Assembly (NCBI GenBank): GCA_964016885.1
Contig: OZ024743.1
Location: 173,414,001-173,478,000, forward strand
DNA length: 64,000 bases
Origin: Eledone cirrhosa
Lineage: Eukaryota
Direction: 5' to 3'
A program made the position numbers and the translations under genes. Numbering within the stretch: position 1 is the first letter of the stretch; every line of letters begins with the position of its first letter. Shown here piece after piece: positions 31,891 through 32,501 of this stretch. The notes under the pieces are model-generated. The model was not told where the DNA came from, did not search any database, and saw only the letters and a list, made by a program, of their open reading frames with translations.

Positions 31891-31936
<46 letters not shown>

Positions 31937-32027
31937 AGGATCGGAATTAAGAGTATTCCGCAGTTCACAGTAATAATAATAATATTAGCTCAAAGAAGAA
32001 TAGAGAATTTTCTTCCGAGCTCAAATG

Positions 32028-32501
32028 CAAATATATTACACAAATAGAAGTGTGTTACACAGTGAGATGTGTGTAAAGAATTATTACAAGTGAGTTTTAC
32101 CGTTACTGTATAGAGAACAATATCTACAGGTTTAGCAATTAAATAGAAAAAAACTAAGTCAGAATCAAATCACTGAATTAGAGTTTTAAATTACCAACCT
32201 TATAACATGAGGTTAGATGTGTCGTGAACAGTTTCCACATTTGCTGACTGAGGATCCTGTGAACTGTTAAACTGCACATGTCGGTGGTGAAACGAAACGA
32301 GATTCGTATCAGCAAACTTATAGTTATAAGGTTGGTAATTTAAAACTCTAATTCAGTGATTTGATTCTGACTTAGTTTTTTTCTATTTAATTGCTAAACT
32401 TGTAGATATTATTCTCTATACAGTAACGGTAAAACTCACTTGAAATAATTCTTTACACACATCTCACTGTGTAACACACTTCTATTTGTGTAATATATTT
32501 G
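32028..32501. repeat. Inverted repeat (179-bp arms, 116-bp spacer holding a hammerhead)
   Basis: 32028-32206 vs 32323-32501 with about 3 mismatches. Confidence 0.95.
32240..32316 (+). ncRNA. Type I hammerhead ribozyme
   Basis: TTTGCTGA-CTGAGGA-(39 nt, imperfect stem II)-GAAA-CGAGATTCGTA-TCAGCAAA; 8-bp stem I, 4-bp stem III, GUA site at 32308. Confidence 0.75.

Follow-up and report, generated by a model that had tools for sequence, protein, structure and literature searches.

How does a hammerhead ribozyme motif come to lie in the loop of a long hairpin, and does it act there? The question is raised by a locus at 31935-32501 of the window (the whole 64,000-nucleotide stretch of Eledone cirrhosa DNA analysed here), where two inverted copies of one sequence enclose a single hammerhead. 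Probably, the locus is the 3' end of a Penelope-like retroelement (PLE), inserted as two 5'-truncated copies head to head in a TA microsatellite; the hammerhead would lie in the loop simply as a result of where the two copies end, one short of it and the other beyond it.

Layout of the locus and its element family

The features between 31889 and 32557 are given below, with their basis in brackets. X1, X5, X9 and X4 are four public runs, which were compared with 31933-32325 at 80% likeness.

31889..31934, no strand: (TA)n microsatellite, the left insertion site (sequence)
31935..32027, minus strand: 93-nt 3' extension ('tail'), in the minus copy only (sequence and family reads; in one X5 contig the last tail bases are joined to TA repeats)
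32028..32206, minus strand: left arm, a 5'-truncated copy without the hammerhead, first base at +15 from the cut (arm comparison)
32207..32322, plus strand: spacer, the 5' part of the inverted tail-less copy, starting at -101 (other copies carry family sequence further upstream, as in an X1 loose end before 32206)
32227..32268, plus strand: 7-bp complement, 32227-32233 with 32262-32268, which would act as a competing helix or as a flank-to-loop II pseudoknot (duplex energy -5.3 kcal/mol)
32240..32316, plus strand: type I hammerhead motif, predicted cut after 32308 (motif parse; family variation avoids core and stems)
32323..32501, plus strand: right arm, the 3' part of the inverted copy, with the tail-less end (arm comparison)
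32502..32557, no strand: TA/ATC microsatellite of the right flank, then the 3' end of a LINE-like fragment, unrelated and on the minus strand (sequence)

The arms (32028-32206 and 32323-32501) are each 179 nt long and differ at 3 positions, which in a plus-strand RNA amount to two mismatches and one G-U pair; the spacer between them (32207-32322) measures 116 nt. Within the spacer, the 14 bases 32309-32322 separate the cleavage site from the counterpart of the minus copy's first base, which is at +15 from the cut, while the plus copy begins at -101. The minus copy extends 93 nt past its arm to 31935 before TA repeats begin, and the right arm directly meets TA/ATC repeats, a TA-rich microsatellite thus flanking the inserted pair on both sides. 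The two copies point their 3' ends outward into TA repeats, one with the tail and one without, and are joined at +15 / -101. The fragment beyond the right flank is one that we take to be LINE-like from a reverse transcriptase motif in its translation rather than from a library match. The initial annotation had started the tail-bearing minus copy, lacking the ribozyme, 14 nt past the GUA site at 32308, and these coordinates all hold; it had also put the hammerhead of the inverted copy inside the 116-nt spacer, where a type I motif does parse at 32240-32316 with its GUA at 32306-32308.

Records matching 31933-32325 numbered 583 in X1, 42 in X5, 536 in X9 and 1 in X4. In other copies the arm follows directly on the hammerhead, as the joints 32203/32325 and 32206/32316 show; some copies lack the tail and give way to TA repeats at 32028/32031, and others include the tail to its last base. 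Hammerhead, arm and tail thus form one multi-copy element that is shortened at its 5' side. Upstream of 32206, one X1 contig carries on into other sequence. Read depth peaks at 32045-32086, near the 3' end, and declines toward the hammerhead; the pile-ups of read ends in X9 (6 of 7 listed) all fall on AATT sites, and so represent ends of a restriction library rather than of the element. Among the joints listed in the family reads there was no tail-to-head joint, and pattern scans of metagenomes gave no match.

This layout is likely to be the published 'inverted 5'-truncated copy plus tail', that is, ordinary transposon debris with a small residual lead. For Penelope-like elements it is described as usual that an inverted 5'-truncated copy adjoins the 5' end, that one end bears a tail of 30-40 bp and that the targets are (TA)n (PMC8557442); head-to-head junctions with palindromes have been reported, with self-priming on the antisense template suggested (PMC3846280), and opposite-strand hammerhead pairs lie 100-700 bp apart (PMC4209133). 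The family reads fit these descriptions in that depth is highest near the 3' end, tail-less ends lie in TA at 32028/32031 and the hammerhead is continuous with the arm. Like the endonuclease-bearing (EN+) PLEs (Penelope/Poseidon, Neptune, Nematis) in the accounts of PMC8557442 and PMC3846280, the locus has a type I hammerhead near the 3' end, a head-to-head inverted 5'-truncated copy, a one-sided tail and a TA microsatellite target; unlike them, it has no ORF, its tail is 93 nt rather than 30-40 nt (about 85-97 nt at two related ends in the window) and only one of its two copies carries the hammerhead. EN+ PLEs have an ORF with a telomerase-like reverse transcriptase and a GIY-YIG endonuclease. 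No reverse transcriptase or endonuclease frame belonging to the 31935-32501 copy was found, nor any ORF in it, and membership of the Penelope-like elements hence rests on non-coding features. A one-sided extension is present, and ends with and without the tail both occur in the family, but its length of 93 nt counts against a Penelope-like origin. The locus also resembles non-LTR retrozymes in being non-coding and PLE-related with a type I hammerhead (bioRxiv 10.64898/2026.07.22.740005); these are, as far as the excerpt describes them, head-to-tail tandem units each with a hammerhead, whereas here a single hammerhead sits in a head-to-head pair.

A Penelope-like insertion could have given this arrangement in a few steps. 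The element protein would nick both strands of the TA target, and two cDNAs would start on the element RNA, one from a distal start site (with the tail) and one from a proximal site (without it). One cDNA would stop at +15 and the other pass through the hammerhead to -101, after which the two ends would be joined, possibly aided by a short imperfect complement at the junction. In Anolis, a PLE protein was found to nick as well as extend both target strands, with two reverse transcription start sites bounding the tail (PMC11167929), and hammerhead cleavage is described there as dispensable for the insertion chemistry in vitro (PMC11167929). Simple fold-back of one cDNA is the poorer fit, since it is the shorter copy that carries the tail and the longer one that is without it. 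Microhomology may have set the joint: imperfect pairing is possible between the first spacer bases and 32317-32321, and short matches are in borderline excess at other junctions. A test of whether inversion junctions are linked to self-complementarity of the RNA was only borderline (P 0.046 and 0.055, 9 junctions). An exact ungapped match on the inner side of the 32206|32207 junction has a length of 0, and the weakness of the microhomology excess (P about 0.05) counts against the joining step of this explanation.

The hammerhead motif and its predicted fold

The motif at 32240-32316 has the elements of a type I hammerhead (CUGANGA, GAAA and NUH, with stems I and III). Stem I is 8 bp long (32240-32247/32309-32316) and stem III 4 bp (32293-32296/32303-32306), and the core consists of CUGAGGA at 32248-32254, GAAA at 32289-32292 and GUA at 32306-32308. 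Stem II is weak, with a U.U beside the core followed by 2 bp; the G10.1-C11.1 pair that would close it is absent (U 32255 / U 32288), also in the family majority. At E up to 10, Rfam gave no hammerhead match in 31935-32500 and one chance match of another kind; for the whole window at E up to 1, only microsatellite-driven miRNA matches were found among the 150 of 475 listed. An alternative register on a second GAAA (32294-32297) was rejected, the family varying at 32297 and 32299; a G at 32297 predominates in the family (2080 of 2219 depth units in X1), which makes the first GAAA the family register.

Like metazoan PLE hammerheads of the minimal kind (min-HHR; PMC4209133), the motif is of type I with an intact core, an extra base after A9 and high variability between copies. 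It differs from them in its 4-bp stem III and 8-bp stem I, in which it is nearer to fungal and protist PLE variants with a large helix III, and in its long and irregular stem II, its possible pseudoknot between the 5' flank and loop II and its lack of G10.1-C11.1, a pair given as conserved in the same source, which describes the metazoan motifs as being of low activity (PMC4209133).

Variation in the family suggests that the ribozyme has been kept. With 40 of 138 variant rows listed, 13 variable positions fall within 32240-32316, none of them among the 13 core or 8 stem III positions; only 2 of the 13 fall among the 37 of 77 positions that are structured (P about 0.01, on the same 40 of 138 rows). 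The changes 32240 T>C and 32316 A>G fall on opposite sides of the same base pair, the outer one of stem I. Since the variants avoid core and stems and include these two changes, the ribozyme seems to be conserved in the family as a whole, judging by these sequence comparisons.

The predicted fold is less favourable. For the motif alone, the active fold lies 9.6 kcal/mol uphill, vs 0.7-7.5 for 7 other hammerheads of the window (in this control, 8 of 13 hammerhead-like candidates parsed, and the 5 unparsed were left out). When 32028-32501 was folded as a plus-strand RNA, as the initial annotation had proposed, one very stable hairpin resulted (-314.6 kcal/mol, z -37), equalled by 0 of 100 shuffles; the first five bases of the spacer are able to pair with 32317-32321, which would carry the predicted stem 5 bp further into the spacer. 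Of the picture of a 179-bp duplex with a free ribozyme in its loop, the duplex and the loop position are thus predicted as described, and 'free' is not: the active topology lies 14-18 kcal/mol uphill in the full hairpin, and the pairing probability of stem I is ~0.01. These uphill figures count the helix between 32227-32233 and 32262-32268 as a competitor, because the folding program does not model pseudoknots; with this main competitor set aside as a pseudoknot, the active topology is 9.1 kcal/mol uphill. The same two segments make up a candidate pseudoknot from the 5' flank of stem I to loop II of this PLE hammerhead, whose stem III has 4 bp. Most family copies have other bases at 32232, 32233, 32262 and 32263, which reduces the 7-bp complement to 5 bp. 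Taken together, these models make the ability to self-cleave a roughly even matter at the family level, and somewhat lower for the 32240-32316 copy in its hairpin context.

Copy ends and the cleavage site

The start of the minus copy at +15, close behind the predicted cut, raises the possibility that the tail copy was reverse-transcribed from the 3' cleavage product of the ribozyme, with 14 nt lost on joining, and the second copy from uncut RNA. A family-level hammerhead that looks maintained would agree with this. So would the fall in summed contig depth across the hammerhead boundary, from 11,000-16,000 to 2,000-4,400 in X1 (~fourfold) and from 19-28 to 3 in X5 (~sixfold), as if many copies started just past the ribozyme; however, summed contig depth is no copy number, and the reference is broken exactly at that boundary. 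Depth changes most sharply at +107 to +148 rather than at the cut, and in X9 depth barely falls (52-70 vs 46-53, in a restriction-biased run whose reads start at AATT sites). In addition, compared with the X1 majority the spacer of the window has 8 listed differences and the arm and tail 4-5, so that contigs would be lost at the spacer.

Other copies of the family offer a more direct comparison. Nine inversion junctions at other family loci provide 18 ends, located at -70, -8, 25, 61, 89, 102, 109, 111, 118, 123, 128, 134, 153, 170, 179, 221, 255 and 281; the junction list is small, and of the 101 loose ends in the family reads 18 were listed. The count leaves out the rows 32203/32325 and 32206/32316, which are natural hammerhead-arm continuity, and 32054/32156, taken to be a deletion in a diverged copy; also left out, as indels or natural continuation, are the loose ends 32036, 32095, 32132 (two rows), 32206 and 32316, together with ends that have TA or mixed flanks. 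None of the 18 falls at +1..+15, ends at +1..+14 being hard to see on the reference used and the direction of three strand-switch joints being the analyst's reading, and 1 of 18 lies within 15 nt on either side, at -8. The end at -8 includes the cleavage site and was therefore copied from uncut RNA. For 10 ends spread uniformly over 200-450 nt, the chance of one end at +1..+15 is 0.29-0.54. A joint from 32096 to 32238 in X9 (2 reads) reads as a second family locus with the whole hammerhead looped out, its partner cut at about +123.

The window also holds four more head-to-head PLE-like ends, of other families and with type I hammerheads:

14134-14530: hairpin 14134-14433, ends about -88 and -88 to -94, one-sided tail
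21839-22330: hairpin 21839-22237, ends -120 and -120 to -161, one-sided tail
58614-58937: hairpin 58655-58935, ends about -39 and -9, five bases common at the junction
54865-58300: hairpin 54978-58299, both ends >1 kb upstream of the cut

All 8 ends of these four hairpins lie upstream of their own cleavage site, a count from which the palindrome at 34201-34349 was left out for having no hammerhead. The 14-nt offset does not look special: family ends scatter from -70 to +281, and the siblings start upstream. In Anolis, moreover, uncut RNA is reported as the dominant substrate, with no RNA-seq ends at the cut in the data excerpted (PMC11167929). Copying of the tail copy from cut RNA is accordingly unlikely. 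Distinctly unlikely is the wider proposal in which Penelope insertion would use two templates at once, one of them the hammerhead 3' product, tail copies starting just past the cut would be the genomic footprint of PLE cleavage in vivo, and the resulting long hairpins would open their own loop.

Several observations were made on these siblings and their surroundings. The tails of 14134-14530 and 21839-22330 are about 85-97 nt long, longer than the printed 30-40 nt, and have a common short GTCGAGTGCT motif. At the junction 58810-58817, the shared five bases are complementary parts of hammerhead helices (the 5' side of stem I and the 3' side of stem II); RNA structure may guide where two cDNAs join, the family-wide test of this being borderline. 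A GIY-YIG-like frame lies in hairpin 54978-58299, with E 0.00019 and a score of 22.1 bits, slightly under the cut-off of 22.6. Directly past the left TA repeat of the locus lies another 5'-truncated PLE-like fragment (30830-31888, minus strand), of a different family from the 31935-32501 element, whose frame is similar to the GIY-YIG-like one at 56302-56667 (39% across 83 aa, E 5e-13). A 74-bp palindrome of the perfect type at 34201-34349, with a 1-nt spacer, TA flanks and no hammerhead, is likely to be the same kind of end, cut shorter, and an imperfect, rod-like inverted repeat of 118 nt (45514-45631) adjoins a TA repeat. Further PLE-like and hammerhead-like pieces in the window are:

24314-26143 (minus), 3937-4611 (minus), 36863-37318 (minus), 41920-42600 (plus): PLE-like ORF pieces, only 36863-37318 above the Pfam GIY-YIG cut-off; the frame at 24314-26143 stays open through a 155-nt tandem duplication at 25794-26101
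44306, 13716, 11436 (minus), 10340 (minus), 3332 (minus), 1697 (minus), 37594 (minus): single hammerhead-like cores in other repeat families, of which 44306, 11436 and 1697 parse as type I

The fate of a transcript and the meaning of the locus

The locus might alternatively be a transcribed, self-opening hairpin that supplies small RNAs against its own family while depending less on Drosha or Dicer. The great stability of the hairpin is in line with this, as is the order of transcription, in which the ribozyme would precede the second arm. With its intact core and 4-bp stem III the monomer could in principle cleave, according to the motif model, and the possible flank-to-loop II pseudoknot is of a kind reported to activate hammerheads with a short stem II (PMC3088659). 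Against these points stand the uphill active fold of both motif and hairpin, the missing G10.1-C11.1 pair and the surroundings, in which no host gene or promoter was found around the locus and the neighbourhood consists of LINE-like and PLE-like fragments. A bacterial promoter scan, inapplicable to a eukaryotic genome, was discarded; its result was at chance level. Nothing shows selection on the locus, and because the arms differ at only 3 positions the insertion appears to be young.

The geometry of cleavage bears on the same question. The initial annotation had supposed that self-cleavage would open the loop without Dicer or Drosha; the predicted outcome is only a nicked large loop, in which the products stay paired over 179 bp, the 5' piece overhanging by 102 nt and the 3' piece by 14 nt. 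A minus-strand transcript would be predicted to give the same hairpin without a ribozyme. Hammerhead cleavage leaves 5'-OH and 2',3'-cyclic phosphate ends, unlike the ends left by RNase III, and long hairpins still need Dicer to yield siRNAs. Dicer-independent hairpins (miR-451, AgoshRNA, saiRNA) resemble the locus in being hairpin RNAs, here a predicted one, and saiRNA also employs a ribozyme (PMC5737282). However, the printed examples in that source have stems of 16-20 bp, small loops that do not exceed 5 nt and a ribozyme placed 3'-terminally, compared with 179 bp, a 116-nt spacer and a ribozyme inside the loop here (PMC5737282). A literature search at the level of listings found no natural hairpin with a PLE hammerhead in its loop. 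Self-opening is therefore geometrically possible in the models and unsupported as a function, and we consider this reading of the locus very improbable.

That the hairpin is an assembly or fold-back artefact is barely credible: although the junction 32206|32207 was bridged by none among the 17 of 640 read pieces listed, the arms differ at 3 positions, the outer ends differ and are both natural family ends, the window has four more hairpins of the same build, and one X4 contig, which may not be independent, is identical to 31971-32134 (0 differences over 164 nt).

Under the preferred reading, a Penelope-like end inserted as two truncated copies head to head, the hairpin would be an unselected by-product, and plus-strand read-through would most likely be handled as ordinary long dsRNA. 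The function of PLE hammerheads has been called unclear (PMC8557442), no RNA ends lay at the cut in Anolis (PMC11167929), and charting genome-wide where the 5' truncations of such a high-copy family fall relative to the cut would reveal if cleaved RNA ever serves as a template. As read here, the locus is one of five inverted Penelope-like ends with hammerheads within 64 kb, and in itself matters little.
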